Shown: positions 1-27,250, counted from the first letter of the stretch. The stretch: 32,000 bases of DNA from Propionibacterium ruminifibrarum (GCF_900289195.1 NZ_OMOH01000004.1:1-32000), one strand, 5' to 3'. Made by a program: numbers and translations. The notes: generated by a model from the sequence alone, not told the origin.

Positions 1-23
1 ACAAACCACCACAAGAACCCTCA

Positions 24-2597: not shown

Positions 2598-2635
2598 TAC
2601 TAGATCCCCTCGAGATCATCGATTCTTACTGGAAG

Positions 2636-3028
2636 TTACTCGCCTAGAACGTTGTTCTCTTTGAAGAAAGTGAAATCGCCGGTCTGAGCCGCAGTGATCA
2701 TCTCAGACTGGAAGGTGGCGGCCATCTCCTCATTGCCTTGGTTGTACGCCACGGTCGCGCTCGCCACCCCCCAGGCGCCTGCTTGTATGTAGTTGCCAAT
2801 CGAGGTCAGATCATCACCCAGCGAGGCGATAAGATTATCCACCGCCGTGGGCACCGAACCCATCACCGAGTTGACGCCGGCCGACCCCTCGGTCGCCCCG
2901 CCTGTCAGGCAGTTCTCCAGATCGGTGAACTCGTCCTCACTCAGACCTTCTTGGAACTGATCCGCGTAGGTCGTTACGTTATCCAGGACGACCTTCACCT
3001 GCGCGCCGTCGATCTTCCAGCTACTCAT
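2636..3028 (-). CDS. 130-aa small, mostly helical protein of unknown function. Candidate toxin partner or targeting factor.
   Basis: ORF placed 4 nt after the upstream gene's stop and 38 nt before the toxin start. Its composition is Ala/Gln/Glu-rich and helical, with an internal AGAWGVA segment reminiscent of WXG100 hairpins. The function is inferred from position only. Confidence 0.6.
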   Translation of the reverse strand: MSSWKIDGAQVKVVLDNVTTYADQFQEGLSEDEFTDLENCLTGGATEGSAGVNSVMGSVPTAVDNLIASLGDDLTSIGNYIQAGAWGVASATVAYNQGNEEMAATFQSEMITAAQTGDFTFFKENNVLGE

Positions 3029-3032
3029 CGTG

Positions 3033-3362
3033 TCACTTCCGTTCCATCACGCGTCCGCCCAGCCTGCGCGCCAGCTCGGCGCAGATCACCCGCCCAGTGC
3101 GGGAATCGGCATAGGGCAATGCCATGTCGGTCCACACCTGCCCGGCCCGGACGTCCTCGAACGTCCCCGTGGCCTCTCGAGCCACGGCCAGGGCCCTGGG
3201 TGGCCACCAAGTGAGGATGCCGTCGTTGTTGTGGTCGCGGAGCAGACAGGACCCGTCGACCAGTTCATGCAGCTCTCCGCCAGGGATGATCGCGGTGATA
3301 GCCGCCTCCCAGTCCTGCCAGGTGGGTGCGGTGCCGCTCAGCAGGACGAGTTCAACGGCCAT
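3033..3362 (-). CDS. 109-aa hypothetical protein. Alternatively, the C-terminal part of a frameshifted ~465-aa protein.
   Basis: High third-position GC in this frame and a non-repetitive sequence (MAVELVLLSGTAPTWQDWEAAITAI...). The ATG at 3362 lies inside the end of the upstream ORF, giving an 11-nt overlap (ATGGCCGTTGA). The 203-aa track ORF is open upstream of this ATG, but its N-terminal 94 aa look like Arg/Ser/Cys-rich noise. Confidence 0.5.
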   Translation of the reverse strand: MAVELVLLSGTAPTWQDWEAAITAIIPGGELHELVDGSCLLRDHNNDGILTWWPPRALAVAREATGTFEDVRAGQVWTDMALPYADSRTGRVICAELARRLGGRVMERK

Positions 3363-4428
3363 TGCCAACCCCGTTTCCGTCCAGCCCGAGGGCATGGCTG
3401 AGGCCGGGCAGTCCGACACTGCGGAACACGTCGCAGAGCTGCCTCCACGGCGCTTCATCGCCGAAGAAGGGCACGAGCACGGTCGGAAGCAGCGAGCGGC
3501 CCAGACGCATCCCGCCGTGCCGGGTGACGATCTCGTCGACGTCGAGACCAGACTCCTTGATCGCCCACGGGCCCGCCATGATGCCCAGCGGGTACTCGGG
3601 TCGCCGCGAGCGCACGTGCTGGTAGCCGTCCGGGTCATCGTCAATGAGCGTTGTCATGGCGAACACCGGGGTGAACGCCTCGTGAACCCTCCGCAGCACG
3701 GCCGTGGACAGCTCGACGGCCCGTTCGACGGCCTCGCCGTAGGAGCCAATCGGCACGGTGCCGCACAGGTGCTCGCTCAAGCCAGAGGCGCCGCGCTCGT
3801 ACTGGAGCGTCGCCACCGCGCCGGGCGCGGGCGCCGAGAGCCGGTAGATCGGCGTGCTCGGCATGTGGCGGCGGGCGTCCATGGTGAGCGCCCGCCGATC
3901 CCACGGCCGGCTGAGCGGCTCGGTGAAACCCAGCAGATCGGGGGCCGGGGCCCCAAGGGTCGCGAAGACGAGTTCGGCCAGGGAACCCACCCGCAGCTCC
4001 TCGGTCGCCCGGTGGTGCACCATGATGTCGAAGCCGACGGCTCCGGCCGCCTGCGGGTCGACACCGGGCATGTCGAGGCGGGGCAGCCGGCTCATCGCGA
4101 CGGGATCGTCGAGCTGATCCAGCGTGTCCAGGTCGCGGCCGGTCAGGGCGTCCATCATGTGCCCGTCGGCGCGCATGGTGACCCACGAACCCATTGAGGC
4201 CGCCATCTCGAAGCCGAGGAGGCGGCTCAGGGCGGCGTCCTCGTCGGTGACGAGGACGGGGCGCAGCTGCTGCATGCGGGCGAGCAGCAGGAACTGCCCC
4301 AGCGCGGGGCTCAGGTCGAGGCGCTTGCGGTAGCTGTGGTAGACCACCGCGTTCGTCGCGACCCCATCGATAACGGGCAGCTGGCCGAACCGAAGCGGCG
4401 CCTGCCCGCTTGTCACTGTTGTGCTCAC
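3352..4428 (-). CDS. 358-aa conserved-looking hypothetical protein associated with the T7SS substrate genes.
   Basis: Balanced amino-acid composition. Its GTG start overlaps the stop of the upstream WXG100-like gene (GTGA at 4425-4428). The antisense ORF 3124..4197 is Arg/Gly/Pro-rich and judged spurious. I recognise no catalytic motif. Confidence 0.65.
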   Translation of the reverse strand: MSTTVTSGQAPLRFGQLPVIDGVATNAVVYHSYRKRLDLSPALGQFLLLARMQQLRPVLVTDEDAALSRLLGFEMAASMGSWVTMRADGHMMDALTGRDLDTLDQLDDPVAMSRLPRLDMPGVDPQAAGAVGFDIMVHHRATEELRVGSLAELVFATLGAPAPDLLGFTEPLSRPWDRRALTMDARRHMPSTPIYRLSAPAPGAVATLQYERGASGLSEHLCGTVPIGSYGEAVERAVELSTAVLRRVHEAFTPVFAMTTLIDDDPDGYQHVRSRRPEYPLGIMAGPWAIKESGLDVDEIVTRHGGMRLGRSLLPTVLVPFFGDEAPWRQLCDVFRSVGLPGLSHALGLDGNGVGNGR

Positions 4429-4751
4429 AGGTGGACGGCGCTGCCGGCTCGTTGGAGGGCGGTCTGGGCGACCTGGTCGGACTCCTCCATCGCCCCGATC
4501 AGCTGAGCGATGATCTGACGCACCTCATGCCCGGCCTTGTTCCAGTTGTCCTCCAACTGGTGCATCTGGTCGGACACTCCCTCTGCCTCGTAGTTCGCCA
4601 TGAGCGACTTCACATCGGCGTCGTGCGAGTCCAGCACCGCAAGCAGCTGGGCGGCCGCGGCCCTCATGTTCGCCCCAGCAGTCTGGGAGTCGGCGATGTT
4701 GTAGTCATTGCGATCGGCGTCGTTCACATTGTCAAAACCTGAGTAATCCAT
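4425..4751 (-). CDS. WXG100-family-like small helical T7SS substrate (~108 aa) with a deviant WXG motif.
   Basis: ~100-aa Ala/Gln/Glu/Asp-rich two-helix-type sequence. The central turn reads NWNKAG rather than the canonical W-x-G. A GGAG lies 10 nt upstream of the ATG at 4751; the track ORF starts 9 nt earlier at a GTG. The gene is paired with a second similar gene and sits next to eccC/eccD. Confidence 0.6.
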   Translation of the reverse strand: MDYSGFDNVNDADRNDYNIADSQTAGANMRAAAAQLLAVLDSHDADVKSLMANYEAEGVSDQMHQLEDNWNKAGHEVRQIIAQLIGAMEESDQVAQTALQRAGSAVHL

Positions 4752-4836
4752 GACAGGCACACTCCAAAAAACAGAACGGATTGGGAATCAAAGACGAAAC
4801 GAGGAAGACCACGAAAGGCAGACCCGAGGGAAGCGG

Positions 4837-5175
4837 TCAGACGTTGCGGGCCACCGCGGCGTCGAAGTTCGCGCCGGCCTGGCTGCTGCTGAACACCTCG
4901 GTGGCCTGCTCGGCGTGCTGCTGGAACGCCCTGCCCTGCTCGTTTGTCGAGTTGAGGATGCCCTGCAGCGAGGTGTTGAGCATGTCCGCCACCGCATTCG
5001 CGTTCTGCTTGAACGAGTTGAACGACGCCTTCACCGGCCCGTTCATGCTCTTGGCGACCGGCTCTGCCGCCTGCACGAACGCCAGCACCATCGCCCCCAG
5101 GTCACTGCTCGACGCGTCGGTCTTCTTCGCATGGTCCGACAACGCCGTGCCCTGCATCGCGAACTTCATACCCAT
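4837..5175 (-). CDS. WXG100-family-like small helical T7SS substrate (112 aa) lacking Trp in the hairpin turn.
   Basis: ~110-aa helical, Ala/Gln/Asn/Ser-rich protein that is the first gene of the minus-strand operon. A GAAGGAGG Shine-Dalgarno lies ~12 nt upstream of the ATG at 5175. The turn region reads SMNGPVKASF instead of W-x-G. Confidence 0.55.
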   Translation of the reverse strand: MGMKFAMQGTALSDHAKKTDASSSDLGAMVLAFVQAAEPVAKSMNGPVKASFNSFKQNANAVADMLNTSLQGILNSTNEQGRAFQQHAEQATEVFSSSQAGANFDAAVARNV

Positions 5176-5497
5176 GACCGGTCAAGGCCTCCTTCATGCT
5201 GACCCCGGAGCACACGAACCACCGGGGCGGGGTGGTCAGACGTGGACCGAAAAAACGGCCGCAAACGTGCAGTACGGTACCGATCAGGCATCCCCTTGAG
5301 CAGCACATTCCGACACCGACACGCCCCCAGAAAACCCCCACAGACACCCCTAAGGGACAGGCGAACCCCTCGTCACACGGCGTTTCACCGTGACTGGCGG
5401 TGAACCCCCGGCTTGGGATGCAGACCGGCGGCCGGTTCGTCTCCCATCAGCGGTTAGGCTGAAAGACGTCTCAGCCAGCCCCCCGGAAGAGGTCATC
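5176..5497. promoter_or_regulatory. Divergent promoter/leader region between the substrate/toxin operon (minus strand) and the FHA-ecc operon (plus strand).
   Basis: A 322-bp non-coding gap between divergently oriented first genes, each with a good Shine-Dalgarno. It contains an imperfect inverted repeat, GTCACaCGG-N7-CCGTGAC, around 5372-5394. I could not identify -10/-35 elements with confidence. Confidence 0.4.
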
Positions 5498-6385
5498 ATG
5501 CCAGCCACCGTCCCCACCATCGTGTGTGGGCGCTGTGGCACGCCCTTCGTCGGCACGGCGGTCTGCGGCAGCTGCGGTCACCCGACCACCGCCACCTGGC
5601 CCTTCGACACCGAGGAGTGGCGCACGCGGCTGCGCCCGGCAGACCAGGAGCGCCTCATCGCGGCGCTCGCCCTCGACGCCCTGTGTCTGCTCGTCCCGGT
5701 GGTGGCCCTGGTCGTCGCCGCGGCGCGCGGCGGCTGGCACCCGTGGGCCATCGTCCTGGTCGCCGTGGCGCTCCTCGGGGCGCTCGCCGGCCTCGGCCTG
5801 TGGTGTCTGCGCGACTGGGGGCGTTTCGTCGGTGGGGCGGCCCTGCGGCTGCGCACGCTCGACAGCCTCACCGGGCTGGCGCCGTCCCGGTTCGTGGCCC
5901 CGCGGCTGCTGCTCGTCGCCGACGCACGGACCGAGGACCCCCTCCTCGTCACGGTCCCCCACCTGGGCGATCTGAGGGCCATCGCGAAACCGCGCTCGCT
6001 GCCGACCCCCGCCACCACGCCCCCGGCGCAGCCCGCGGCGCGCCCCCCGGGCTGCTTCGTGGCCACCAGCCAGAAACTGACACCGCTCGTCGGCCCGCTG
6101 CTCGTCGGCCGCTACCCGGTGCGCCAGATCGGCGCCGAGCCGCTGCCCACCCTCGAACTGCCCGACTTCACGCGCACGATGAGCCGGGCGCACGTCCTGC
6201 TCGAGAACGAGAACGGGCGTCTGTGGGCCACCGACCTGGACTCCGGCAACGGCACCCGCATCCGGCGCCCGGGCGAGCAGCCGGTGGCGATGGTGCCGCG
6301 CATGCGGATGCCGATCATCCCCGGCACGCGCATCGACTGCGGCGAGCAGAGCCTGTTCATCACCGACGGCAGGAGGGTCGCATGA
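5498..6385 (+). CDS. Membrane protein with an N-terminal CxxC...CxxC zinc ribbon, a central RDD-like two-TM domain and a C-terminal FHA domain.
   Basis: The N-terminus reads IVCGRCGTPFVGTAVCGSCGH. Hydrophobic helices follow (LALDALCLLVPVVALVV, WAIVLVAVALLGALAGLGLW). The C-terminal FHA signature is LLVGRYP...SRAHVLLENENGRLWATDLDSGNGTRI. A GGAAGAGG Shine-Dalgarno precedes the ATG at 5498. Confidence 0.75.
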   Translation: MPATVPTIVCGRCGTPFVGTAVCGSCGHPTTATWPFDTEEWRTRLRPADQERLIAALALDALCLLVPVVALVVAAARGGWHPWAIVLVAVALLGALAGLGLWCLRDWGRFVGGAALRLRTLDSLTGLAPSRFVAPRLLLVADARTEDPLLVTVPHLGDLRAIAKPRSLPTPATTPPAQPAARPPGCFVATSQKLTPLVGPLLVGRYPVRQIGAEPLPTLELPDFTRTMSRAHVLLENENGRLWATDLDSGNGTRIRRPGEQPVAMVPRMRMPIIPGTRIDCGEQSLFITDGRRVA

Positions 6386-6843
6386 TCGACCGCGACCGCA
6401 TCCTCGTCGAGGCCACCCGCACCCGCCGCCAGCGGCTGCTGTCGGCCCTCACCTTCGGCACCCTGCCCGACCGGCGCACCGTCACCAACAACGTCGGCCG
6501 GTTCGTCGGCTCGGCGGTGCTGGCCGCGGTGATCGGCGCCGGCTGCCTCGGCGGCTCGTTCGTCGTGAACACCCTGCAGGAGCAGAAGATGTCGACCACC
6601 TCGGCGAACTACCGATCGGCGATCCAGGGCACCTCCACCCTCGACGAGGGCACCAGCGTCGACCCCCGCACCGGCTACCCGATCGACCCCGAGACGGGCT
6701 GGGCCATGGCCCCCGACGGCCTCGCCTACGACACGAGGAGCGGATGGCAGGTGGACACCCGCACCCGCAGACTCATCGACCCCACCACGAAGTACCAGGT
6801 GGACCCCGAGACGCTGCAGGTCTACCCGAAGGAGCGCACCTGA
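6382..6843 (+). CDS. 153-aa single-pass membrane protein with an extracytoplasmic region of short DPxTG/W-x-VD-type repeats. Unknown T7SS-associated component.
   Basis: The ATG overlaps the FHA gene stop (ATGA at 6382-6385). A basic N-terminus is followed by one TM helix (FVGSAVLAAVIGAGCLGGSFVV). The C-terminal region reads DPRTGYPIDPETGWAMAPDGLAYDTRSGWQVDTRTRRLIDPTTKYQVDPETLQVYP. Confidence 0.6.
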   Translation: MIDRDRILVEATRTRRQRLLSALTFGTLPDRRTVTNNVGRFVGSAVLAAVIGAGCLGGSFVVNTLQEQKMSTTSANYRSAIQGTSTLDEGTSVDPRTGYPIDPETGWAMAPDGLAYDTRSGWQVDTRTRRLIDPTTKYQVDPETLQVYPKERT

Positions 6844-8156
6844 TGGACTACACGCGGGTGACGGTGCACGGATCGCAGCACCGCGGCGATCTCGTCGTGC
6901 CCAGCTCGGAACCGCTCGTCACGGTCCTGCCCCGGCTGCTCGAGATGCTGTCCGAGACCAGCCCCGGGGGCGCCGGCGTGGCACTGACCACCTCCGAGGG
7001 CATCCAGCTCGACACGGAGCGTTCCCTCGCCGAGCAGCAGGTGCGCGACGGGCAGCTGCTGCTCGTCCGCCCCGCCGACCAGACGCCCCCGCCCCCGCAG
7101 GTCTCCGACCTGGTCGGGGCCACGGCCGACCGTCGCAGCTCGTCCCGCGGACGCTGGTCGCTCGACACGGCCCGCCTGTGCGTCGTGCTGCTGGAGGCGC
7201 CGCTGGCCGGGCTGGCCACCTGGCAGGCCGGTTCGGCGCTGCCCGCCGCCGCGGTCACCGCCGCCGTCGTCCTCGTACTGCTGGCCGTCGCCGCCTGCCG
7301 CGCCTGGCGGGCCTGGCCCGCGACGGCGGTCGTCTCGGCCGCAATCGGAGTCGCCGGGACGGTCGGGGCCGGCGCCGTCGCCGGGACCGACCTGTCCGGC
7401 GCCCACCCCGTCCTGGTGCCCGCCGCGACCGGTCTGGCCTGCGCCTGGCTCGTCGTCGCGCTGGCCCCCGGTCTCGCCGGCGGGCAGCGGCCGATGCTCG
7501 CCACGGGCGTGGTCGGAGCCGTCGGCTGCGCGGCGCTGCCGATCCTGCTGGCCCTGGGCATGGGCGTCACCGGGGTGGGCGCCGTCATCGCCACGGCCGC
7601 GGTCTGCGGGCTCGGGCTGGTGCCCGCCGCGGCCCTGTCGCTGTCGGGCCTGACCGAGCTCGAGGACGCGGCGATCGCCGGCAGGCCCCCGGCCCGCGGC
7701 ACCGCGCAGGAGGCCATCGACGGTTCGTTCCGCGCGATGACCGGGCTGACCCTGGCGCTGGCCGTGCTGGCCGCCGGCGGACTGTGCCTGCTCGTCGGAT
7801 CACACCCCTCGCAGTGGGGCTGGGGGCTGGCCTGCGCGCTGGGGATCGTCATCGTCTGCCGCACACGGTTCTTCCCGTTCACCGCACAGGTCGTCGCGCT
7901 GGCCGGTGCCCTCACCGCCCTGGTGGCGGTCCTGCTCGCCTGCACGCCGCTGGCCGGCCCGCTACGTGGCCTGGTCATCGCCGCCGTCGCCGCGGCACTC
8001 GCCCTCGTCCTGGTCAAACCGGTCCCCGAGCACACCGCGGCCCGGGTGCGCACCTGGGCGAACCTCGCCGAGCTGATCGCCGTCGTCGCCACCGTGCCGC
8101 TGCTGCTCGGCCACTTCGGCGTCTTCTCCGACCTGCTGGAGGTCTTCTCACGGTGA
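6843..8156 (+). CDS. eccD: Type VII secretion integral membrane protein EccD.
   Basis: The N-terminal ubiquitin-like (YukD-like) segment MDYTRVTVHGSQHRGDLVVPSSEPLVTVLPRLLEML is followed by roughly 11 hydrophobic helices over ~340 aa. The start overlaps the upstream stop (TGATG at 6841-6845). The gene lies adjacent to eccC. Confidence 0.85.
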   Translation: MDYTRVTVHGSQHRGDLVVPSSEPLVTVLPRLLEMLSETSPGGAGVALTTSEGIQLDTERSLAEQQVRDGQLLLVRPADQTPPPPQVSDLVGATADRRSSSRGRWSLDTARLCVVLLEAPLAGLATWQAGSALPAAAVTAAVVLVLLAVAACRAWRAWPATAVVSAAIGVAGTVGAGAVAGTDLSGAHPVLVPAATGLACAWLVVALAPGLAGGQRPMLATGVVGAVGCAALPILLALGMGVTGVGAVIATAAVCGLGLVPAAALSLSGLTELEDAAIAGRPPARGTAQEAIDGSFRAMTGLTLALAVLAAGGLCLLVGSHPSQWGWGLACALGIVIVCRTRFFPFTAQVVALAGALTALVAVLLACTPLAGPLRGLVIAAVAAALALVLVKPVPEHTAARVRTWANLAELIAVVATVPLLLGHFGVFSDLLEVFSR

Positions 8157-9019
8157 AGGCCCTCTCACTGCTCAGCTCAACGCCCGGGGCACGGCTCGAC
8201 TTCCTGCTCGACGCCGACCGGGCCCTGCACGGCGCCGTCCCCCTGGCCCGCCGCGTCGCCGTCGTGAGCGTGGACGGCGGGACCGGCTGCTCGACGATCG
8301 CCGCCGCGGTCGCCACCACGATGGCCGGCCGGCACCGGGGCCCGGTGGTCCTCGTGGACGCCGGCCGCAACGGCCCCGGCGCCGGCGTACGGGCCGGGCT
8401 CAGCGACGACGCCCGCCGGCTGGCCGACGAGGAACTGGCCGCGGCACGCGCCGGCGTCGAGGGCGACGAGCCGCGCCCGCCCACCACCCTGGCCGAGGCC
8501 ATGACCGGCCTGCCCCGCACGGCCTCCGGGCTGGCGTGCCTCGACTTGACGCGAGAAACGTTCCCGGGCTGTCTCGACCTGCGCGACTGGGCTGACAGGC
8601 TGGCACCCATCTCCCGGTTCCCGGACTTCGTCGTCACGGACTTCGGGGTGCGCGACCGTGACGAACTGAGCACGATCGCCGCGTCCAACCACGCCACCTG
8701 CCTCGTCGCCGGGGCCTCACGCGAACGCCTCACCCGGGCCATCGCCCAGGCCACCTGGCTCGAGGACGAGGGGCACGCGCCCCTGGTGTGCATCAACGAC
8801 ACCCGCGGCGGCGTCAGCAGACGACAGCTGCGCCTGCTCAGCCGCGCCCTGCCGCGCCCTGCCGTCCTCATGCCGCACGACCCGACGCGGCTCGGCGCGG
8901 ACCCGGCGCGCAGCACGGCCCTGAGCCAGCGCAGCCGCAACGCCGTCCTCGAACTGACCGCCTCCCTCATGACCGCCTGCCAGCAGACACCCGATGCCGG
9001 AGGGGGCATCGTCCCATGA
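8153..9019 (+). CDS. 288-aa ParA/MinD/CpaE-like (SIMIBI-fold) protein with a degenerate Walker A lacking the P-loop lysine.
   Basis: The GTG start overlaps the eccD stop (GTGA at 8153-8156). VAVVSVDGGTGCSTIAAAVA aligns with the deviant Walker A xKGGxGKT/ST but carries Cys in place of Lys. VVLVDAGRNGPG and DFVVTDFG resemble the switch and Walker B strands of MinD/ParA. The family assignment rests on motifs only. Confidence 0.55.
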   Translation: MKALSLLSSTPGARLDFLLDADRALHGAVPLARRVAVVSVDGGTGCSTIAAAVATTMAGRHRGPVVLVDAGRNGPGAGVRAGLSDDARRLADEELAAARAGVEGDEPRPPTTLAEAMTGLPRTASGLACLDLTRETFPGCLDLRDWADRLAPISRFPDFVVTDFGVRDRDELSTIAASNHATCLVAGASRERLTRAIAQATWLEDEGHAPLVCINDTRGGVSRRQLRLLSRALPRPAVLMPHDPTRLGADPARSTALSQRSRNAVLELTASLMTACQQTPDAGGGIVP

Positions 9020-12000
9020 GCCTGCGCATCATCCACCGCCCAGCCCGCGTCACCGAGCCGCTCACCCGGCCCGAGCCCCGCACGATCTCGTCCCCGCCGA
9101 GCGCCGGCGACGGGCCCAGCGGCGGCATGTCCACCCAGCTGCTGCTGCCCATGGTGGGGGCCCTCAGCTCGACACTCATGATGGTCGTCATGCGCAACGG
9201 CCAGCCGGTGTACATGCTCATCGCCGCCGTCGTCCTGCTCGTCGCCATCGTCAGCGGGGTGCTCATGACCTTCAGCAGCCGCGGGCAGGCCATCCGCCAG
9301 CGCGCCCACCAGCGCGAGCTCTACCTCGACTACCTGGAGGGCATGCACGCCGAACTGGACGAGCAGGTTCAGCAGGTGCGCGAGCAGGCGGTCGCCAGCT
9401 GCCCGACACCGGACGGCCTCATGTCGATCATCGTCGACCCGGCGCGGCTGTGGGAGCGGCGCATGGGCGACGCGGACTTCCTGTCCCTGCGGGTGGGCAC
9501 GGCCGACCTGCCGTGGATCAGGCTGACCATGAACGACGCCGAGTCGCCCATGAACCCGCCCGACCCGGTGCTGGCCGGCGAGGCCAGGCGGCTCATCGAC
9601 GGCCACCAGGTCATCGCGGGCATGCCCGTCCGCCTGCCCGCCGACGCCGCGGGCGACATCTCGGTCATCGGCGACCGCGCCGAGGTGCTCAACGCGGCAC
9701 GCACGCTGCTGTCCCAGGCCGCCGCCCTGCACTCGCCCGACGACCTGAAGATCGCGCTGGCCTGCCCGCCGTCGCGTATGGACGACTGGGCGGGCCTCGA
9801 CCAGCTGCCGCACATGGTCAACGCGCGCCTTCTCGACGGGCCCGTGCCGGCCCGCCGCGTCGCCCCGGACGTCGGCTCCCTGGCCCGCGTGCTGGGCGCC
9901 GAGTTGACCGACCGCGTCGAGCAGGCCGGCCTGAGCCGCCGCTCGATGACCGCCTCCCCGGTGCACACGCCCCGCATGCTCGTCGTCATGGACGAGTGGG
10001 GCTCCAACGCCAGCCCCCTGCCGCTGCCCGACAGCGCCTTCGGGCCGGCGGACGTGGGCATCACCGTCATCCACCTGCTGCAGGACCGGCTGCACGAGCC
10101 GAGCGACGTCTCGGCCCGTCTCGCCGTCGGCGAGGGCGGGGCGCGGCTTGAACTCCTCGGGCGCGAGCCGGCGACGATCGGCCCCATCGCCGTCGACCGC
10201 ACCAGCCAGGCCCGCATGACATCCCTGGTCCGTACCCTGTGCCCGCTGCGGCTGCGCCCCGAGGACCGCGTCGAGGAGCAGGAGACGCCGGTCATGAACG
10301 TCCGCCAGCTGCTCGGCATCGATTCGCCCGACGACATCAGCAAGGATGCCGCGTGGGCGCCGCGCTCGGCCGCGGACTTCCTGCGCGTGCCGATCGGCCT
10401 GGACGACCAGGGCTCCCCCGTGCTGCTCGACCTGAAGGAGAGCGCCCAGTTCGGCATGGGCCCGCACGGCATCTGCATCGGCGCCACCGGCTCGGGCAAG
10501 TCCGAGATGCTGCGCACCCTCGTCCTGGCCCTGGCCATGACGCACTCCCCCGAGGACCTGTCGATGATCCTCGTCGACTACAAGGGGGGCGCCGCCTTCT
10601 CGCCCTTCACCGACCTGCCGCACCTGGCCGGCCTCATCGACAACCTGGCCGACGACCCGCACCTGACCGAGCGCGCCCGCGCCAGCATCCAGGGGGAGGT
10701 CGTGCGCCGCCAGCAGATGCTCAAGGACGCCGGGCACCTGCCCTCCATCACGCACTACCGCGAGGCCCGCCGGCAGGGCGCCGACCTGCCGCCGATGCCG
10801 CACCTGTTCGTCGTCATCGACGAGTTCGGCGAACTGCTCACCGCTGAACCCGAGTTCAGCGAACTCTTCCTGCAGATCGGCCGCATCGGCAGGTCGATCG
10901 GCGTGCACCTGCTGCTGTCGAGCCAGCGCATCGAGTCCGGCAAGCTGCGCGGCCTGGACACCTACCTGTCGTACCGGCTGGGTCTGCGCACCTTCTCCGA
11001 GAGCGAGTCGCAGGTGGTCCTCGACACGAAGGACGCCTTCCACCTGCCGGCCGTGCCGGGGTACGGCTATCTGAAGGTCGACACCTCGGTGTACCGGCGC
11101 TTCCGGGCCGGCTACGTCTCGGGGCCGGTCGAGGAGGACGAGGTCGACACCGACGTGCAGGCCGAGTTCGCCGAGCCCTTCGCGCTGCCGCTCTACAACA
11201 CCATCGCCGCCGGCCGGACCAGCGGCGACGTCGAGGCGGCGCCCCAGCTCACCGAGCCCGAGGTCGGCCAGAGCCTGGTGGACGCCTGCGTCGCGCGCCT
11301 GCGGGACGACGCCCGCGCGGTGCGCCCGGTCTGGCTTCCGCCGCTGCCCGAACGCCTGACCCTCAACGACGTCCTCTCCCAGGACGAGCCCGACCCCGGA
11401 CTGTCCGCGGTGATCGGCCTCGTCGACGACCCCGCGCACCAGTCCCAGCAGCCGTGGCGGCTCAGCCTCACCACCAGCGGCGGCCATGTCGCGGTGATCG
11501 GCGCCCCCGGCTCGGGCCGCTCCACCTTCCTGCGCACCCTCACCGCCTCGCTGGCGCTGACGCACACCCCGCGGGAGGTCAGCGTCTACGGCATGGACCT
11601 GACCGGCGGCGGTCTGGCCCGCCTCGAGGGCTTCCCCCACGTCGGCGGCGTGGCCACCCGCGGCAGCCGCGACCGGCTGCGACGCCTCGTCGAGGAGCTC
11701 ACGGGCATGCTCACCCGGCGTGAGAGGCTCTTCCAGGAACGCGCCATCGAATCGATGGCGCACCTGCGCCACCTGCACGCCCAGGGCTCCCTGCCCGAGC
11801 TGCCGAGCGCCGACATCGTCGTCCTCGTCGACGGCTTCGGCCTGCTGCGCAACGAGTTCGAGGAGCTCTCCGACCAGGTCAACGACCTCATCGTGCGCGG
11901 CAGCAGCTACGGCCTCCACTTCGTCATCGCCCTCGGGCGCTGGAACGAGCTGCGCATCAACCAGCAGTCCCGGTTCGGCACCCGCCTGGAGTTCCGCCTC

Positions 12001-12972
12001 AACGACCCGACCGACTCGGTCATCGACCGCAAACTCTCGCAGACGATCGGCGCCGACCAGCGCGGCCGCATGCTCACCGACGACAAGCTGTTCGCCCAGC
12101 TGAGCCTGCCGGTGCTCGACGACGCGGCCGACGAGGACCTCGGCGACGCCCTGTCCGAACTGGCCAAGCGCGTCGCGGGCACCTGGGGAGGGCCGGCGGC
12201 GGCGCCCATCCGCCTGCTGCCGGTCGCGCTCGACCCCGCCCAGCTCACGCCCCCCGAGCAGGAACCCGACGCGGTGCCCTTCGGCGTGCGCCAGGACTCC
12301 ATGGAGGACGCCTTCTGGGAACTGCTCGACACCGACCAGCACCTGCTCGTCCTCGGGGACGCCCGCTGCGGCAAGTCCACCCTGCTGCGCACGTTGGCGC
12401 GGGGCCTCGTGACGAGGTTCAGCAGCGACGAGCTGGTCATCGCGGTCATGGACTCGCGCGGCACCGTCCCGGCCGCGATCCCCGAGGAGTACCTGGCCGG
12501 CCATGCCAAGAGCACCCGGGACGCCGCGGGGCTGGCCGCCTCGATCGCCAAGGAGCTGGAATCACGGACGGCGATGACCCCGGCCGAGCGCGCCAGGTCG
12601 CCGCGAGTGGTACTCATGGTCGACGACTACGACATCCTCAACGCCGGCGGCACCGAACCGCTGCACCCCATCGTCGCCTACCTGCCCTCGGCCAGGGATC
12701 TGGGCTTCAACGTCGTCCTCACCCGGACGGTGGCCGGGATCACCAGGGCCCTGTACACCGAGGCGATCCAGGGGCTGCGCGACACCGGCGGCACGACCTT
12801 CCTCATGTCCGGCGACCGCTCCGAGGGGCAGATCATGCCGCGCGTCTACGCGCAGACCATGCCGCCCGGCAGGGGCCAGCTGCTGCGCCGCGGGCAGCGC
12901 CCGGTCATCGTGCAGGCCGCGTGCGAGCCCGGTTCGGCCTCGGGCGACCGGCGGCACGAGGAGGTCGCATGA
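9016..12972 (+). CDS. eccC: Type VII secretion FtsK/SpoIIIE-family ATPase EccC (1318 aa; two N-terminal TM helices and three ATPase domains).
   Basis: The ATG overlaps the upstream stop (ATGA at 9016-9019). TM helices are LLLPMVGALSSTLMMVVM and VYMLIAAVVLLVAIVSGVLM. The three P-loops are GATGSGKSEMLRTL (with Walker B FVVIDEFGELL), GAPGSGRSTFLRTL and GDARCGKSTLLRTL. Length and architecture are typical of EccC. Confidence 0.95.
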   Translation: MSLRIIHRPARVTEPLTRPEPRTISSPPSAGDGPSGGMSTQLLLPMVGALSSTLMMVVMRNGQPVYMLIAAVVLLVAIVSGVLMTFSSRGQAIRQRAHQRELYLDYLEGMHAELDEQVQQVREQAVASCPTPDGLMSIIVDPARLWERRMGDADFLSLRVGTADLPWIRLTMNDAESPMNPPDPVLAGEARRLIDGHQVIAGMPVRLPADAAGDISVIGDRAEVLNAARTLLSQAAALHSPDDLKIALACPPSRMDDWAGLDQLPHMVNARLLDGPVPARRVAPDVGSLARVLGAELTDRVEQAGLSRRSMTASPVHTPRMLVVMDEWGSNASPLPLPDSAFGPADVGITVIHLLQDRLHEPSDVSARLAVGEGGARLELLGREPATIGPIAVDRTSQARMTSLVRTLCPLRLRPEDRVEEQETPVMNVRQLLGIDSPDDISKDAAWAPRSAADFLRVPIGLDDQGSPVLLDLKESAQFGMGPHGICIGATGSGKSEMLRTLVLALAMTHSPEDLSMILVDYKGGAAFSPFTDLPHLAGLIDNLADDPHLTERARASIQGEVVRRQQMLKDAGHLPSITHYREARRQGADLPPMPHLFVVIDEFGELLTAEPEFSELFLQIGRIGRSIGVHLLLSSQRIESGKLRGLDTYLSYRLGLRTFSESESQVVLDTKDAFHLPAVPGYGYLKVDTSVYRRFRAGYVSGPVEEDEVDTDVQAEFAEPFALPLYNTIAAGRTSGDVEAAPQLTEPEVGQSLVDACVARLRDDARAVRPVWLPPLPERLTLNDVLSQDEPDPGLSAVIGLVDDPAHQSQQPWRLSLTTSGGHVAVIGAPGSGRSTFLRTLTASLALTHTPREVSVYGMDLTGGGLARLEGFPHVGGVATRGSRDRLRRLVEELTGMLTRRERLFQERAIESMAHLRHLHAQGSLPELPSADIVVLVDGFGLLRNEFEELSDQVNDLIVRGSSYGLHFVIALGRWNELRINQQSRFGTRLEFRLNDPTDSVIDRKLSQTIGADQRGRMLTDDKLFAQLSLPVLDDAADEDLGDALSELAKRVAGTWGGPAAAPIRLLPVALDPAQLTPPEQEPDAVPFGVRQDSMEDAFWELLDTDQHLLVLGDARCGKSTLLRTLARGLVTRFSSDELVIAVMDSRGTVPAAIPEEYLAGHAKSTRDAAGLAASIAKELESRTAMTPAERARSPRVVLMVDDYDILNAGGTEPLHPIVAYLPSARDLGFNVVLTRTVAGITRALYTEAIQGLRDTGGTTFLMSGDRSEGQIMPRVYAQTMPPGRGQLLRRGQRPVIVQAACEPGSASGDRRHEEVA

Positions 12973-14054
12973 GCACCCAGTCACTCCTCGTGGCGGGCAC
13001 GGCCGGGGGTGCCGGGACGACCACCGTCGCCGCGCTCATCATCGCCCTGCTGCGCTCCCGCGGGATCCCCACGGCGGCCTGCGACCACTCGGGCGGCACG
13101 CTCGGCCAGCGCATCGCCCCGGACGAGCCGGCCGCGCAGGGCCCCGCCGGCAGCGAGATGCAGGTCACCGACGCGGGCCGCATGGAGGCCGCCATCGCCG
13201 ACGCCCTCGAAGTGCCCGAGTTCGCGCTGTGCCTGGTCAGCGGCCCCGGCATCGCCGCGGCACAGGCCACCCGGGCCGCCGTGGACGGCCTGCTCGAACG
13301 GTTCGGCCAGCAGATCCGCCGCCGCGTCCTCGTCGTGGTGTGCGCCTCCGCCGCCATGCGCCGGCGCGATGAGCAGCTGGCCCGCGAGATCCTGCGGCCC
13401 GACATCGAACTGCCCCGCTCCCCCGTCCTCGGATCCACCGGCCCCATCAGGCTCGACCTGGCCGACAAGGCGCTGGCGTCGGCGCTCGACAGGCTGGGCG
13501 GCCTGCTGGCCGGTTTCGTCCGGGTGCCGACCGCCCCGCAGGACGAGGACTGGCCCACCAGGATCACCAGGATGCCGGAGCCGGCCGGGGCCGAACCCGC
13601 CACGCCCCAATCCCCCGTGGCGGCTGCTGACAGCCCACCCACTCCGGCCGGGATCAGCGCCCCTGAACCCGCCGAGGCCACCGCCACCGGGCCAGGGGAC
13701 CGGGTCGTTGCGCCCCGTACCCTGGCCGCCATGGCAGCCGTTCCCGACGGCCCGCCCGAACCCGCTCCACGGAGCGCCGTCTCCCCGGCCCAGGTCCCCA
13801 TGGCCGTCGTCCCCGACGGCCCGCCCGAACCGACAGCGACCGGCCCGCTCCCCGCTCGTGGCGCCCCGCCTGACCCGACGCCCCTCACCGCCGCACCCAC
13901 GCGGGGCATCGCCCCAGAACCCGACGAGCCCCTCGAGCCCGAGGACGCCGCGCCGGCCCGGGCGGCCCGGCGGGCGCCCGAGGACCCCGGGGAGCAGGAC
14001 GAGCCCGTGCCCACCGGCCAAGAACGGGCTCGCCGCGGCGACGTGCTCGGTTAG
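12969..14054 (+). CDS. 361-aa protein with an N-terminal ParA/MinD-like domain (lysine-less P-loop) and a long Pro/Ala-rich C-terminal tail.
   Basis: The ATG overlaps the eccC stop (ATGA at 12969-12972). [24 protein letters not shown] matches GGxGxTT with Thr in place of Lys. The C-terminal ~170 aa are Pro/Ala/Glu-rich and contain a repeated VPDGPPEP unit; the DNA repeat cccgacggcccgcccgaacc occurs at about 13742 and 13811. Confidence 0.5.
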
Positions 14055-14142
14055 ATTTGGTTTCCGGAAACATCGTTCGGTGCCGCGCCCGACGGAGCCC
14101 CGGGTGGCCCCGACGCGCACCGCTCAGACCGGAGGAGTCCCA

Positions 14143-15591
14143 GTGACCGGAATCGACGTCACGCAGCAGGCGAGCATCGCCTACCAGGCCATGCTCAAGG
14201 TCATCGAGACCTCTGAGCCCACCGTCGCCGAGGCCATCCGCCAGGAGCTGACCGACCAGCGCACCTCGCTGAAGCTCATCGCGTCGGAGAACTACGCCTC
14301 GCTGCCGACACTGCTCGCCATGGGCACCTGGTTCTCCGACAAGTACGCTGAGGGCACCGTCGGCCACCGCTTCTACGCGGGCTGCCAGAACCTCGACACC
14401 GTCGAGGCGGCCGCGGCCCGGCACGCCGAGGAGCTCTTCGGCGCCGACCACGCCTACGTCCAGCCCCACTCGGGCATCGACGCCAACCTCGTGGGCTACT
14501 GGACCATCCTGTCGCACCGCGTCGAGACGCCCGGGCTCGCCGAGCTGGGGGCCAAGAGCGTCAACGACCTGTCGGAGCAGGACTGGGAGGAACTGCGCCA
14601 CCGGCTCGGCGAGCAGCGTCTCATGGGCATGAGCCTCGACGCCGGCGGCCACCTCACCCACGGCTTCCGCCCCAACATCTCGGGCAAACTGTTCCACCAG
14701 CGCAGCTATGGCACCGACCCGGCCACCGGCCTGGTCGACTACGACGCGGTCCGCGCCCAGGCCCGCGAGTTCAAACCGCTCGTCCTGGTGGCCGGGTACT
14801 CGGCCTACCCGCGCCGCGTGAACTTCGCCACGATGCGGGAGATCGCCGACGAGGTCGGCGCGACCCTCATGGTCGACATGGCACACTTCGCCGGCCTGGT
14901 CGCCGGGAAGGTGTTCACCGGCGACGAGGACCCGGTGGCCAACGCCCCGGTCGTCACCACCACGACCCACAAGTCCCTGCGCGGCCCGCGCGGCGGCATG
15001 GTGCTCGTCGACGACGAGTTCGCCGCCGACGTCGACCGCGGCTGCCCGATGGTGCTCGGCGGGCCGCTCGGCAACATGATGAGCGCGAAGGCCGTCGCCC
15101 TGGCCGAGGCGAAAACGCCCGCCTTCGCCCAGTACGCCCAGGACATCGTCGCCAACGCCAAGGCGCTGGCCGAGGGGCTGCTGCGGCGGGGCGCCACGCT
15201 CGTCACCGGCGGCACCGACAACCACATCGTGCTCGTCGACGCCGCCACGAGCTTCGGCCTCACCGGCCGGCAGGCCGAGTCCGCGCTGCTCGAGGCCGGC
15301 ATCGTCACCAACCGCAATGCGATCCCCCGCGACCCGAACGGCGCCTGGTACACCTCGGGCATCCGGCTGGGCACACCGGCCCTGACCAGCCGCGGGTTCT
15401 CGCCCGAGGACATGGACCGGGTCGCCGGGCTCATCTGCGAGGCCCTCGAGGGCACGCGGCCGGCGGCCAACAGCAAGGGGCTGCCCGGCAAGGCCAAGTA
15501 CGCCATGGCCGACGGCCTGGCCGCCCGCGTCCACGCCGAGGCCGACGAGTTGCTCGGCAACAACCCGCTGTACCCGGGCCTGGAGCTGTGA
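14143..15591 (+). CDS. glyA: Serine hydroxymethyltransferase.
   Basis: Motifs [45 protein letters not shown] (PLP-lysine region) and [13 protein letters not shown]-like [25 protein letters not shown] Shine-Dalgarno lies 5 nt upstream of the GTG at 14143. The rest of the 860-aa track ORF is out-of-context upstream read-through. Confidence 0.93.
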
Positions 15592-22959: not shown

Positions 22960-23637
22960 TCATTCCTGGAATTTGTAGCCGAGGCCGCGCACGGTGATCA
23001 GCAGCTCGGGATGCGCTGGGTCCTGCTCGATCTTGCCGCGCAGTCGTTTCACGTGCACGTCAAGGGTTTTCGTGTCGCCCACGTAGTCAGAGCCCCATAT
23101 CTGGTCGATGAGCTGTGCCCGGGCCATGACGCGCCCGGCATTGCGGATGAGCACCTCGAGTAGATCGAACTCCTTGCGCGCGAGTTTCACCGATTCGCCC
23201 CGTACGGTGATCTCGTGGCGTTCGACATCCATGCGCACACCGCCGGATTCGAGCACATCGGGAACGGATTCCTCCTCCCGCCCCCGGCGCATGACGGCAT
23301 GGATTCTCGCCACCAGCTCGCGAGGGCTGAACGGTTTCGTCACGTAGTCATCGGCCCCCAGCTCCAGACCGCGGACCTTGTCGGCCTCGGAGTCCCTGGC
23401 GGTGACCATGATGATCGGTACGCCGGCACGCCGACGCAGGGCCCGGCAGACCTCCGCACCGCTCATCCCGGGCATCATGAGGTCGAGGAGCACCAGGTCG
23501 GCGCCGTTCGCATCGAACTCGGCCAGCCCGCTGGTCCCGTCGGAGGCCTGGGAGACCTCGTAGCCCTCACGGGCGAGCATGAAGGCCATGGCCTCGCGGT
23601 AGGACTGTTCGTCCTCGATGATCAGGATCCTCGTCAT
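22960..23637 (-). CDS. regX3: OmpR-family response regulator, RegX3/PhoP-like (phosphate regulon).
   Basis: Collinear with my recollection of M. tuberculosis RegX3 over nearly the whole length, for example [40 protein letters not shown] and [30 protein letters not shown]. The ATG overlaps the kinase stop (ATGA at 23634-23637). Confidence 0.9.
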
Positions 23638-25923: not shown

Positions 25924-27177
25924 CTACCCTGACCACGCCGACGAGTCCTGCGATGACTCCTGGGTCGAGAGCGAAGAGGGGTTCTCGCTCAATTCCGCCG
26001 AACGATCGGACTGTTCGTAGAGCATGGGGGCCTCGAGAACCTGAAGGATCTCGGGCGCCACCCAGGACTCCTGGCCGCCCCTGCCACGTCTGCCGATGCT
26101 GCGCAACCAACCGAGGCCCTCAGCGCGCCGAATCACATTGTGGGCTCCGGCATTCGTGATCCCAAGAGCGTCTTCGACCGAACGCGCCGTCAGATAGGGG
26201 TTCTGCACGATCATCTCCACCAGGCGGGCGAGATGGCCACGAGTCCTGATGGCTTCTTGCCGATACTCCTCGCGGATGCCGATGAGGCGGCGCGATCTGC
26301 GGACCGCGTCATGGGCCTGCTCTCGAACAGCGTCGAGGAAGAAGACCAGCCAGTCCGTGATGTCCCCGCTCTCACGGGTCCGTTGGAGGTGCCCGTAGTA
26401 CTCATCGCGGTGAGTCTCGAAGTAATGAGACAGGTAGAGCAGGGGCTGAGTCAGTCGCTTCCGCTCGGTGAGGATCAAGTTGATCACGAGGCGCCCGATC
26501 CTTCCGTTGCCGTCCAGGAAGGGGTGGATCGTCTCGAATTGATAGTGCGCCATCGCGGCCTGAATCAGAGCCGGCAGAGCACGACCGTCCGCATTGACGA
26601 AGCGCTCCCAGTCGCCCATCAGCGCGGGAAGATGCTCAGGGATCGGTGGCACGAAGACCGCCGAGTAGGGGGTGGCATCGGCTGACCCGACCCACACAGG
26701 AGAACTCCTGAATTGCCCAGGCCTGCGGTTCTCGCCCCGTACGCCCCGCAGGAGGGTCTCATGCACCTGGAGCAGCAGGCGCTGGGTGATGGGGAGCGTC
26801 TTGACCAGGGTGAAGGCCTGTCGGGTTGCCGCGAGGTAGCGCTGCACCTCGCGAGTGGCATCAGTCTTCGCCGCCTCGGTGACCTCGGCCTGGAAGACGT
26901 CTGACAGGGACGTTTGTGTTCCTTCGATCCGTGAGCTGGCAAGTGCTTCCCGGTGCAGATAGGGCCCGATGAGCAGCTGGGGGTCACCGATGAGGATCCC
27001 CAGCCCTTCAAGATTGCCGAGGGCGGCATCGGCCTCCGATAAGACGGTGACGACCGGTTCCGTGAGGGGAGCCCGCCTGGGAAGGGGTTTGGGAAGATAG
27101 TACGTGAACGCATACTTGTTCCCCGGACCCTGCACAGGCGAACCGAACACGCTGTCCACGAAACGCGTCGCATCCAT
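25924..27177 (-). CDS. Fic-family protein (putative AMPylase) of class II type, with an N-terminal inhibitory helix motif and a C-terminal winged-helix-like region.
   Basis: Fic active-site motif HPFLDGNGRIGR. The inhibitory motif (S/T)xxxE(G/N) is present as SSRIEG, N-terminal to it. The start was chosen at MDATRFVD (27177); the 11 upstream track codons are a translation of the repeat element. The C-terminal tail is Ser/Gln/Glu-rich. Confidence 0.88.
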   Translation of the reverse strand: MDATRFVDSVFGSPVQGPGNKYAFTYYLPKPLPRRAPLTEPVVTVLSEADAALGNLEGLGILIGDPQLLIGPYLHREALASSRIEGTQTSLSDVFQAEVTEAAKTDATREVQRYLAATRQAFTLVKTLPITQRLLLQVHETLLRGVRGENRRPGQFRSSPVWVGSADATPYSAVFVPPIPEHLPALMGDWERFVNADGRALPALIQAAMAHYQFETIHPFLDGNGRIGRLVINLILTERKRLTQPLLYLSHYFETHRDEYYGHLQRTRESGDITDWLVFFLDAVREQAHDAVRRSRRLIGIREEYRQEAIRTRGHLARLVEMIVQNPYLTARSVEDALGITNAGAHNVIRRAEGLGWLRSIGRRGRGGQESWVAPEILQVLEAPMLYEQSDRSAELSENPSSLSTQESSQDSSAWSG

Positions 27178-27250
27178 GACGCCAAAGTTACAACGAAAAA
27201 CCGTTTTCATTGGAACTTCGCACCGAGCATGTCACGTACGTTGGAAGTTC
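27174..27250. repeat. Direct repeat copy 2 (~77 bp). It contains a degenerate version of the palindrome (27183-27220) and spans the Fic start codon and 5' leader.
   Basis: caaagttacaacgaaaaaccgttttcattggaacttcgcaccgagcatgtcacgtacgttggaagttc aligns with 25693-25760. The shared ccatgacg upstream shows a 2-nt indel between copies. Confidence 0.8.

Follow-up and report, generated by a model that had tools for sequence, protein, structure and literature searches.

A candidate type VII secretion variant, encoded with a polymorphic toxin, in Propionibacterium ruminifibrarum and other actinobacteria

Introduction

[quoted passage not shown] Here we describe a locus of Propionibacterium ruminifibrarum in which EccC and EccD are accompanied by a different set of proteins. 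The locus spans positions 24 to 14054 of a stretch of 32,000 nucleotides (GCF_900289195.1, NZ_OMOH01000004.1:1-32000), called the window below, and our results suggest that it probably encodes a self-contained variant of the actinobacterial T7SS, with a toxin as exported cargo and, also probably, with gating by threonine phosphorylation. A previous sequence-only reading of this DNA had described six plus-strand genes at 5498-14054 and left two options for them: the genes for EccB, EccE and MycP might lie at another place, or the block might represent a T7SS of a reduced or alternative kind.

Garrett, Higginson and Palmer (2024; PMC11217815) have defined the systems T7SSc to T7SSj, among which T7SSd is the only one listed for the Actinomycetota. 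It has an FHA-bearing ATPase, the Ser/Thr kinase TsdD, TsdH and TsdI, a 1654-amino acid (aa) protein with immunoglobulin (Ig) repeats, and no ubiquitin-like component. The same article states that ESX-4 is the sole T7SS in non-mycobacterial Actinomycetota, and mentions neither Propionibacterium nor Microbacterium. More recently, Wang et al. (bioRxiv 2026; PMC13622651) reported that an Esx system of Schaalia odontolytica limits Saccharibacteria, which are parasitic epibionts, and demonstrated experimentally the eccC-dependent secretion of EsxA/B, of a small helper, AesA, and of a larger effector, AesB, in which the N-domain is helical and a disordered region is rich in Gly. They also showed experimentally that the system is under FHA and threonine-phosphorylation control, through the esx-linked Esr pathway, which has an FHA protein as its output and is reportedly most prevalent in the GTDB orders Actinomycetales and Propionibacteriales. 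The set, EsrA to EsrG, consists of a beta-propeller/Ig sensor, MoxR, vWA, transglutaminase, kinase, phosphatase and the FHA output; in the latter, EsrG, a disordered linker that carries Thr precedes the FHA domain; the protein controls secretion post-translationally and has reported zinc-finger variants. The composition of the machine core is not described in that work, and the likeness to our locus rests on cargo and regulation. In the literature searched there was nothing relevant on a T7SS in Propionibacterium or the Micrococcales and no mention of DUF6177 or DUF6507, two families of the locus, and the architecture reported here is apparently undescribed there.

Results

The locus and its occurrence in two orders

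One genome per GTDB species was scanned with an EccC alignment as the query, which returned 80 loci. Components were counted in 56 loci with full flanks, in which all open reading frames (ORFs) were searched with iterated profiles built from the window and its relatives. The genes of the locus are listed here with the number of these loci in which each was detected.

Gene 1: 5498-6385, plus strand; 295 aa, with a zinc ribbon, a two-helix RDD module, a Pro/Thr-rich linker and an FHA domain; 55/56 loci
Gene 2: 6382-6843, plus strand; 153 aa, single-pass; 55/56 loci
EccD: 6843-8156, plus strand; 437 aa, with an N-terminal YukD ubiquitin-like domain and a polytopic membrane domain; 55/56 loci
Gene 4: 8153-9019, plus strand; 288 aa, MinD/ParA fold with a degenerate P-loop; 55/56 loci
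EccC: 9016-12972, plus strand; 1318 aa, with two transmembrane (TM) helices as well as three ATPase domains of the FtsK type; query of the scan
Gene 6: 12969-14054, plus strand; 361 aa, a second ParA-like protein; 30/56 loci
Divergent intergenic region: 5176-5497; separates the substrate operon from the machinery operon
EsxA-like (WXG100-like) protein: 4837-5175, minus strand; 112 aa; 47/56 loci
EsxB/ESAT-6-like small helical protein: 4425-4760, minus strand; 111 aa; 47/56 loci
DUF6177 protein: 3352-4428, minus strand; 358 aa, cytoplasmic, Pfam PF19674; 51/56 loci
x109: 3033-3362, minus strand; 109 aa, cytoplasmic; 52/56 loci
DUF6507 protein: 2636-3028, minus strand; 130 aa, Pfam PF20117; 48/56 loci
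Toxin: 24-2597, minus strand; 857-aa polymorphic toxin with a C-terminal GH-E HNH nuclease; N-terminal region in 50/56 loci

The scan placed the locus in the Propionibacteriaceae (Propionibacterium, Arachnia, Micropruina and Microlunatus) and in many genera of the Micrococcales, among them Microbacterium, Curtobacterium, Frigoribacterium, Cellulomonas, Georgenia, Sanguibacter, Pseudoclavibacter, Janibacter, Brachybacterium, Kocuria and Sinomonas. Two layouts dominate, and that of the window is the Propionibacterium type. The complete genome of P. australiense shares all twelve genes and their order with the window, has glyA, dcuA and vanZ next to them, downstream, and its gene 4 protein is 84% identical to that of the window. 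The same twelve-gene layout occurs in a metagenomic contig with quite different neighbours, where the proteins are only 22-52% identical (30% for gene 1). In Curtobacterium the plus operon reads gene1-DUF6177-gene2-eccD-gene4-eccC-x109-gene6, and in Georgenia a single strand carries all twelve.

Comparative genomics, which the sequence-only reading had proposed for its six-gene block, thus showed that the core recurs in 55/56 loci beside different housekeeping neighbours. The six genes are real, but the conserved set that is not substrate numbers eight, with DUF6177 and x109 added, and the unit is not confined to 5498-14054: it extends left to position 24 through the divergent minus-strand substrate operon, which includes the x109 gene (3033-3362), absent from the earlier account. 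Since the accessory genes accompany EccC and EccD in 55/56 loci and in two orders, and no EccB, EccE or MycP gene recurs beside them, the reduced or alternative T7SS is the better supported of the two options, with the amendments given in this section and below.

EccC and EccD define a T7SSa-like core

The earlier claim that EccD and EccC are recognisable as core components holds, and both proteins score above the NCBI equivalog cutoffs of their NCBIfam families. EccC reached 738 bits on TIGR03924 (cutoff 509) and 658 bits on TIGR03925 (cutoff 347), as against 533 bits on TIGR03928 (EssC), which is under the 778-bit cutoff, and 35 bits only on FtsK. It is a membrane FtsK/SpoIIIE ATPase of the EccCa plus EccCb type, as in T7SSa, carries the Walker A motifs GATGSGKS, GAPGSGRS and GDARCGKS, and has no N-terminal FHA domain. 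EccD scored 103 bits on TIGR03920 (cutoff 95), matched Pfam YukD (1.8e-14) and EccD (1.7e-20), aligned to the EccD of the mycobacterial ESX-P1 locus of plasmid pRAW with an hhalign probability of 95%, and has YukD fused to a polytopic membrane domain, again as in T7SSa.

The locus shares with pRAW ESX-P1 an EccCa/EccCb-type EccC without FHA, a YukD-fused EccD and, putatively, a WXG100/ESAT-6 pair, and it differs from T7SSb, the Ess system of the Bacillota whose EssC has two N-terminal FHA domains, in that EccC has no FHA domain and YukD is fused to EccD, not a stand-alone EsaB; moreover, the EssA, EssB and EsaA families had no match among the window proteins. With T7SSc to T7SSj it has in common a conserved EccC/EssC ATPase, WXG100 or (here) WXG100-like proteins and lineage-specific partners, often with FHA domains or small and single-pass (TsdH, TseK), but its gene set is matched by none of them. 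T7SSd is likewise actinobacterial, but here the ATPase is free of FHA, YukD is present on EccD, and neither a kinase nor an Ig-repeat protein is linked. Within the group, identities between EccC proteins are 53-61% if Propionibacterium is set aside, as against 26-39% to other actinobacterial EccC proteins, with values of 26% for pRAW ESX-P1, 35-39% for the Streptomyces and Tsukamurella replicons and 37-39% for other reduced loci.

EccB, EccE and MycP are not found at the locus

As had been noticed from the sequence, there is no EccB, EccE or mycosin gene in the 32-kb window, judged by Pfam on the window proteins and by NCBIfam on a subset. Beyond the six plus-strand genes, the EccB, EccE and subtilase families had no Pfam match among the other window proteins, and they were absent too when ten of those proteins (the substrate-side genes and four neighbours) were run against NCBIfam. 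Neither EccE nor MycP of the T7SSa kind is present in the window, and no protein built like EccB, which is about 500 aa long, crosses the membrane once and has a large periplasmic domain, was seen in the window, nor any recurring candidate for it in the 56 loci. Peptidase_S8 or mycosin matches were not obtained in the window, and a loose scan for the catalytic triad motifs matched three Gly/Ser-rich effector ORFs only. In the 56 fully flanked loci, ORF clustering revealed no EccB-, EccE- or MycP-like gene recurring beside the module; the leftover clusters that were present in at least 4 loci and were inspected comprised housekeeping enzymes, transporters, putative immunity proteins and a spurious antisense ORF. 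A single-sequence phmmer search with pRAW EccB, MycP, EccE and EccA found none of them among all ORFs of 89 loci, a weak negative of low sensitivity because the search with pRAW EccD failed too. Finally, hhalign comparisons of gene 1, gene 2, DUF6177 and x109 with pRAW EccE gave probabilities of at most 0.2%, and those of gene 1, DUF6177 and x109 with pRAW EccB, EccE, EspG, EccA and MycP (a subset of pairs each) gave no signal. All these searches reach over the window and up to 10 kb of flank on each side of a match. Compared with T7SSa, then, EccE, MycP, EspG and EccA are not detectable at the locus, EccB is absent or cut to 153 aa, and there are three additional conserved proteins, the RDD-FHA protein, DUF6177 and x109.

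Other reduced loci exist in actinobacteria, in Tsukamurella tyrosinosolvens (L089, NZ_LR134454.1, 975-16164) and on a plasmid of Streptomyces coelicoflavus (L090, 11000-28000). As occurs in the window, they have EccC, an EsaB/YukD-family membrane protein that is EccD-like and a WXG100 pair, the Tsukamurella locus also encodes a GH-E nuclease toxin (1591 aa), and no EccB, EccE or MycP gene was found in their fetched flanks. They differ in having no homologues of genes 1, 2, 4 and 6, of DUF6177 or of x109, and in carrying DUF4185, LamG and beta-helix accessory genes. Note that a classical eccB-eccCa locus is present in the same Tsukamurella record, at about 140 kb from the reduced one.

This last observation bears on the other option of the sequence-only reading, that the block is part of a classical ESX system and that EccB, EccE and MycP, encoded elsewhere, assemble with this EccC and EccD. 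As a classical locus and, apart from it, a reduced EccC/YukD-TM locus occur in one record, split or multiple systems per genome are possible. Several results speak against it: a recurring EccB-, EccE- or MycP-like neighbour was seen in 0/56 fully flanked loci, eccB adjoins eccC or eccD in the classical loci compared, the EccC of the window is strongly diverged from the classical protein (26% identity to pRAW), and eight other genes are conserved in the operon. Judging from the window and the flanks searched, we consider the encoding of these components elsewhere unlikely, and prefer the self-contained variant.

Gene 2 has a weak similarity to the N-terminal part of EccB

The first 65 residues of gene 2 are strongly conserved in the family alignment and consist of an Arg-rich cytoplasmic segment followed by one membrane helix (predicted at residues 38-56). 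The tail outside the membrane is variable, and the aromatic OCRE repeat was matched in 18/24 members. In the window this tail (6700-6843; in orthologues, for example, 7253-7747 of locus L039) is made of aromatic D-P-x-T-G-Y/W repeats, which match the eukaryotic OCRE model above the cutoff in several orthologues; it is absent or replaced in other genera.

The conserved part raises an alternative to a wholly new partner, namely that gene 2 is a truncated EccB keeping the cytoplasmic helix and the membrane anchor that contact EccC, so that the system would be a trimmed T7SSa and not an assembly of unrelated parts. The large periplasmic domain of EccB would then have been swapped for the short aromatic repeats. 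One of the 24 gene 2 orthologues matched Pfam T7SS_ESX1_EccB (PF05108) with E=0.012, and one orthologue matched TIGR03919 with E=0.11. Moreover, hhalign against a profile of 9 EccB sequences from annotated plasmids gave a probability of 62% (82% against the N-terminal 110 residues), with a score of 39.5 and E=7.6e-5; residues 11-61 of gene 2 were placed on residues 28-82 of EccB, the aligned part being the cytoplasmic helix plus the membrane helix. The controls stayed at or below 25.5 (reversed sequences, 25.5 and 23.4; thirty column shuffles, at most 19.4). Against this, the cytoplasmic segment by itself scored 12, which is not significant, much of the signal is supplied by the membrane helix, weak significance was reached by one member per library only, and gene 2 of the window has no EccB match in Pfam or NCBIfam. 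The resemblance of gene 2 to the N-terminal helix and membrane segment of EccB is weak but reproducible, a tentative lead that we think more apt to fail than to hold; the truncation of EccB and the replacement of its periplasmic domain are each possible, with the balance tilted against them to the same extent. To that extent the description of the partners of EccC and EccD as unusual needs a reservation, since a miniature EccB is one possible reading of gene 2.

Genes 4 and 6 are ParA-like proteins with degenerate P-loops

The description of genes 4 and 6 as pseudo-ATPases fits the sequences of both families. Gene 4 has the P-loop GGTGCST, with both lysines missing family-wide in the alignment, and gene 6 has GGAGTTT, with G.GttT conserved across its family and the Walker A lysines missing as well; an intact deviant Walker A motif (KGGxGK[ST]) is found in neither, as compared with KGGVGKT in the pRAW protein. 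The fold of gene 4 is that of MinD/ParA: its profile found ParA 3ea0 in the PDB (1.2e-5), and its AlphaFold2 (AF2) model, of moderate confidence (pLDDT 64, pTM 0.65), retrieved HypB, MinD, CooC, ParA and FlhG in Foldseek at E=1e-8 to 1e-5. It is also homologous to the EspI-type MinD/ParA protein of pRAW (hhalign 97%, E=8e-11, 241 columns), whose gene sits just upstream of eccD in the ESX-P1 locus; a MinD/ParA-family gene beside eccD is therefore another feature shared with that system, although here the ParA-like proteins are duplicated and have lost the Walker A lysines that EspI retains. Among the four unusual partners, then, gene 4 has a homologue in classical loci.

Genes 4 and 6 align to each other with an hhalign probability of 97.7% (E=2e-12) and are paralogues, and gene 6 orthologues have weak CbiA/BcsQ matches. 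The gene 6 tail (13570-14054) is Pro/Thr/Ala-rich, disordered, about 160 aa long and confined to Propionibacterium; a kinase might act on it, or it might serve as an FHA ligand.

An FtsK-like ATPase with ParA-like partners might also be read as a DNA-translocation or partition device, as EccC belongs to the FtsK/SpoIIIE superfamily and ParA-like proteins classically act on DNA. We find this hardly credible. EccC scores far over the EccCa/EccCb equivalog cutoffs and reaches only 35 bits on FtsK; it is linked to EccD, to a putative WXG100/ESAT-6 pair and to a toxin with a conserved N-terminal domain; the ParA-like proteins have no ATP-binding lysines, which partition ATPases require; and family scans of the window found no relaxase, replication or ParB gene at the locus. 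A secretion system remains the preferred reading.

Gene 1 carries an FHA domain with conserved phosphothreonine-binding residues

In the gene 1 family, FHA was matched by Pfam in 24/24 members and RDD in 20/24, and an N-terminal CxxC...CxxC zinc ribbon is present in about half of the family. The RDD module has predicted TM helices at 54-72 and 85-103, and the Pro/Thr-rich linker precedes the C-terminal FHA domain. An exhaustive search retrieved 39 cluster representatives at E<=1e-10, and the nearest solved relatives in a PDB profile search were ArnA (3e-9) and FhaA (7e-8). Within the FHA domain G204, R205, H232, D246 and G252 are invariant and T253 nearly so, and GR, S-x-x-H and D..S.NGT (NGT) are kept in the 68-sequence consensus, so that the residues predicted to bind phosphothreonine (Gly-Arg, Ser-x-x-His and Asn-Gly-Thr) are all present.

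Since the FHA domain of gene 1 keeps these residues and follows a Thr/Pro-rich linker, secretion would probably be gated post-translationally by Ser/Thr-kinase signalling, a proposal that draws on sequence and on analogy. Switches of this kind are known from other machines: in type VI secretion (T6SS), Fha1/TagH with PpkA-PppA ties an FHA domain and threonine phosphorylation to the secretion machine, and EssC of T7SSb carries FHA domains. The likeness lies in an FHA module that is physically associated with a secretion machine and through which the recognition of phosphothreonine is tied to assembly or firing; the machine is a different one, and here the FHA domain is on a separate RDD membrane protein.

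Another parallel is the EsrG/Esr2 pathway linked to Esx in Schaalia. The Schaalia system shares with our locus an EsxA/B pair (putative here), a small helper with a large effector, an FHA protein with a Thr linker, and the same GTDB orders (Actinomycetales and Propionibacteriales). However, of the EsrA-G set the 32 kb of the window contain only an FHA protein with a domain-linker-FHA layout, and family scans found there none of the other families (MoxR, vWA, transglutaminase, kinase, phosphatase, beta-propeller); gene 1 is anchored in the membrane through its RDD module, unlike EsrG, and the effector ends in a nuclease, unlike AesB. The AesB motif GYNVP/GYVNP was found in none of the related loci.

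DUF6177 and x109

The DUF6177 protein matched its Pfam family PF19674 at 2.1e-62, and its AF2 model has a pLDDT of 84 and a pTM of 0.84. Its sequence profile gave nothing meaningful against the PDB, and the best structural match of the model, 7drg_B (PA0821, associated with T6SS), had a TM-score of 0.36 and was not accepted as a fold assignment. x109, whose gene overlaps the end of the DUF6177 gene by 11 nucleotides (nt), had no Pfam or NCBIfam match; its orthologues include 4856-5185 in L006 and 7738-8115 in L005. DUF6177 lies between gene 1 and gene 2 in the Curtobacterium and Microbacterium operons, and x109 between eccC and gene 6 in Curtobacterium and Georgenia. Since both are inside the core operon in some genera, they appear to behave as machine components. 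An exact-protein look-up of the DUF6177 protein and of the toxin returned no record.

The substrate side: an Esx pair and a toxin cassette

The EsxA-like protein matched Pfam WXG100 (6.8e-4, 20.3 bits; cutoff 27.3) and TIGR03930 (1.4e-3), and the EsxB-like protein scored 73 bits on NF035935 (ESAT6_3; cutoff 100) in NCBIfam. Orthologues of the pair are recorded as WXG100/ESAT6-like, those of the EsxB-like protein as PF28026 ESAT6-like.

The DUF6507 protein (Pfam PF20117, 2.4e-14) is always encoded directly upstream of the toxin gene in the 48/56 loci that carry it, and is a probable small helical co-secretion partner of the toxin, by analogy with Lap/LXG and with AesA/AesB (PMC13622651). The toxin has an N-terminal region of about 330 aa that is conserved across loci (its hidden Markov model was matched in 50/56 full loci), a Gly-rich disordered middle and a C-terminal GH-E HNH nuclease (Pfam GH-E 1.7e-9, residues 794-853). 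In 4/10 orthologues there were sub-threshold WXG100 matches at toxin residues ~13-88. In P. australiense the orthologue ends in Ntox15 instead of GH-E and is followed in locus L006 by two 156-aa genes that are plausibly immunity genes. The organisation is thus that of the polymorphic toxins of Zhang and Aravind, with a conserved N-terminus, interchangeable C-termini and an immunity gene after the toxin. In the window the gene downstream of the toxin, presumed to encode immunity, is cut by the window edge. Effector orthologues in L033 (1905-4127), L047 (810-3872) and L083 (3-2756) match a loose subtilase catalytic-motif pattern, probably by chance in Gly/Ser-rich sequence, although a protease at the C-terminus of some effectors is conceivable.

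In composition, the genes for the toxin and for DUF6507 stand apart from the remainder, with a GC content of 53-57% (window 1-3030; toxin about 54%) against about 70% elsewhere, and the toxin is 41% identical to its P. australiense counterpart, compared with 84-99% for the machinery genes and 65% for gene 6. Because of the low GC, the 41% identity and the different C-terminal nuclease, the toxin/DUF6507 pair looks like a laterally exchanged effector cassette.

These data also bear on a further alternative, that the locus is a decaying, non-functional ESX remnant which has lost EccB, EccE and MycP. The classical components are indeed absent from the window. However, the genes are all intact with a strong coding signal, the toxin cassette is actively diversifying, and the architecture is kept across two orders at protein identities down to 22-35%, which argues for purifying selection; we hold a remnant to be very improbable, and a working secretion system to be the preferred reading. 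On this reading the EsxA/EsxB pair and the DUF6507-toxin pair would be exported, and the nuclease cargo points to antagonism of neighbouring bacteria.

Gene models, junctions and neighbouring genes

The six plus-strand reading frames are supported by direct translation and by a third-position GC of 0.8-0.97 across all of them, and independent gene calls in a public contig with an identical EccD give the same proteins of 295, 153, 437, 288, 1318 and 361 aa. Gene 1 starts at the ATG at 5498, with a ribosome-binding-like motif, GGAAGAGG, upstream. An 860-aa ORF at 13009-15591 was rejected as a frame artefact, since the frame-specific GC follows gene 6 to about 13650-14054 and glyA from 14143.

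The junctions described from the sequence are all present, at 6382-6385 (ATGA), 6841-6845 (TGATG), 8153-8156 (GTGA), 9016-9019 (ATGA) and 12969-12972 (ATGA). Four of them are overlaps of 4 nt, as claimed for all, but at TGATG the stop codon TGA (6841-6843) and the start codon ATG (6843-6845) share 1 nt. Strict co-translation was overstated: the overlaps indicate ordinary translational or operon coupling and are nothing exceptional, because overlapping junctions are common in the window (esxB/DUF6177, 4 nt at 4425-4428; a kinase/regulator pair, 4 nt at 23634-23637; and the x109/DUF6177 junction given above) and occur in its unrelated operons too. Judging from its position, the divergent region 5176-5497 presumably holds the promoters of both operons; a sigma-70 consensus scan found nothing in it, and promoter and terminator consensus scans were uninformative.

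The operon is directly followed by glyA (SHMT), as had been said, with a GTG start at 14143, 88 nt downstream of gene 6. The window has a GC content of about 70%, and neither rRNA nor tRNA genes came up in it in Rfam and tRNA scans; an rRNA operon considered for its low-GC left end (1-3000) was rejected on these empty scans, the region being the toxin/DUF6507 cassette. The other genes of the window are housekeeping or unrelated: DcuA, VanZ, DUF2207, a zinc peptidase, IspF, a two-component system, PhoU, a Fic protein, IspD, TIM and FBA. The Fic/DOC-family protein (25924-27210, minus strand), with Fic_N and HTH-like regions, is encoded between phoU and a flavodoxin-like gene in a stretch of about 64% GC, which may be a small inserted element.

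Discussion

Our results argue that the locus at 24-14054 is a probable T7SS variant with its own cargo. Several observations weigh against this interpretation. Gene 6 was detected in only 30/56 loci. The local absence of EccB, EccE and MycP rests on Pfam and NCBIfam for the window only, and on ORF clustering and a phmmer search of low sensitivity for the other loci; as the searches covered the window and flanks only, eccB, eccE or mycP could lie elsewhere in the genome. The WXG100 and ESAT-6 scores are under the curated cutoffs, the N-terminal targeting domain of the toxin has sub-threshold matches only, and no kinase, phosphatase or other Esr gene was seen among the window proteins in family scans.

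By homology to ESX structures, EccC would act as the hexameric motor and EccD as the ubiquitin-like and polytopic scaffold. Judging from operon membership and topology, gene 2, possibly derived from EccB, and gene 1 would complete the membrane complex. Genes 4 and 6 would probably be nucleotide-independent cytoplasmic adaptors, like a degenerate EspI, and this dead ParA-like pair, DUF6177 and x109 may together constitute a cytoplasmic adaptor or chaperone layer. Genes 1, 2, 4 and 6 may functionally substitute for EccB, EccE and MycP, as the sequence-only reading had envisaged. The FHA domain would gate secretion when threonine is phosphorylated by a kinase whose gene lies elsewhere; the exported proteins would be EsxA/B and the pair of DUF6507 and toxin, and the GH-E nuclease would act on competing cells.

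A broader claim is that the locus represents an unnamed T7SS class found across much of the Micrococcales and Propionibacteriales, which would have EccC and EccD, no EccE or mycosin genome-wide, EccB reduced to a 150-aa membrane stub, and as its remaining parts an RDD-FHA phospho-sensor, two dead ParA-like proteins, DUF6177 and x109. We put this claim close to an even call, though slightly short of one. If true, the minimal conserved T7SSa core would be EccC, EccD and the EccB N-terminus, and the class would be a phosphorylation-gated toxin launcher of monoderm actinobacteria. Its ecological role would be directly testable, because Esx defends related oral actinobacteria against parasitic epibionts (PMC13622651). 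A widespread compact variant would define the truly indispensable parts of the T7SS, would give a function to DUF6177, DUF6507 and several unnamed families, and would be a simpler object for structural studies. It would also link nuclease toxin export and FHA phospho-regulation to actinobacteria that are common in soil and in association with plants and hosts.

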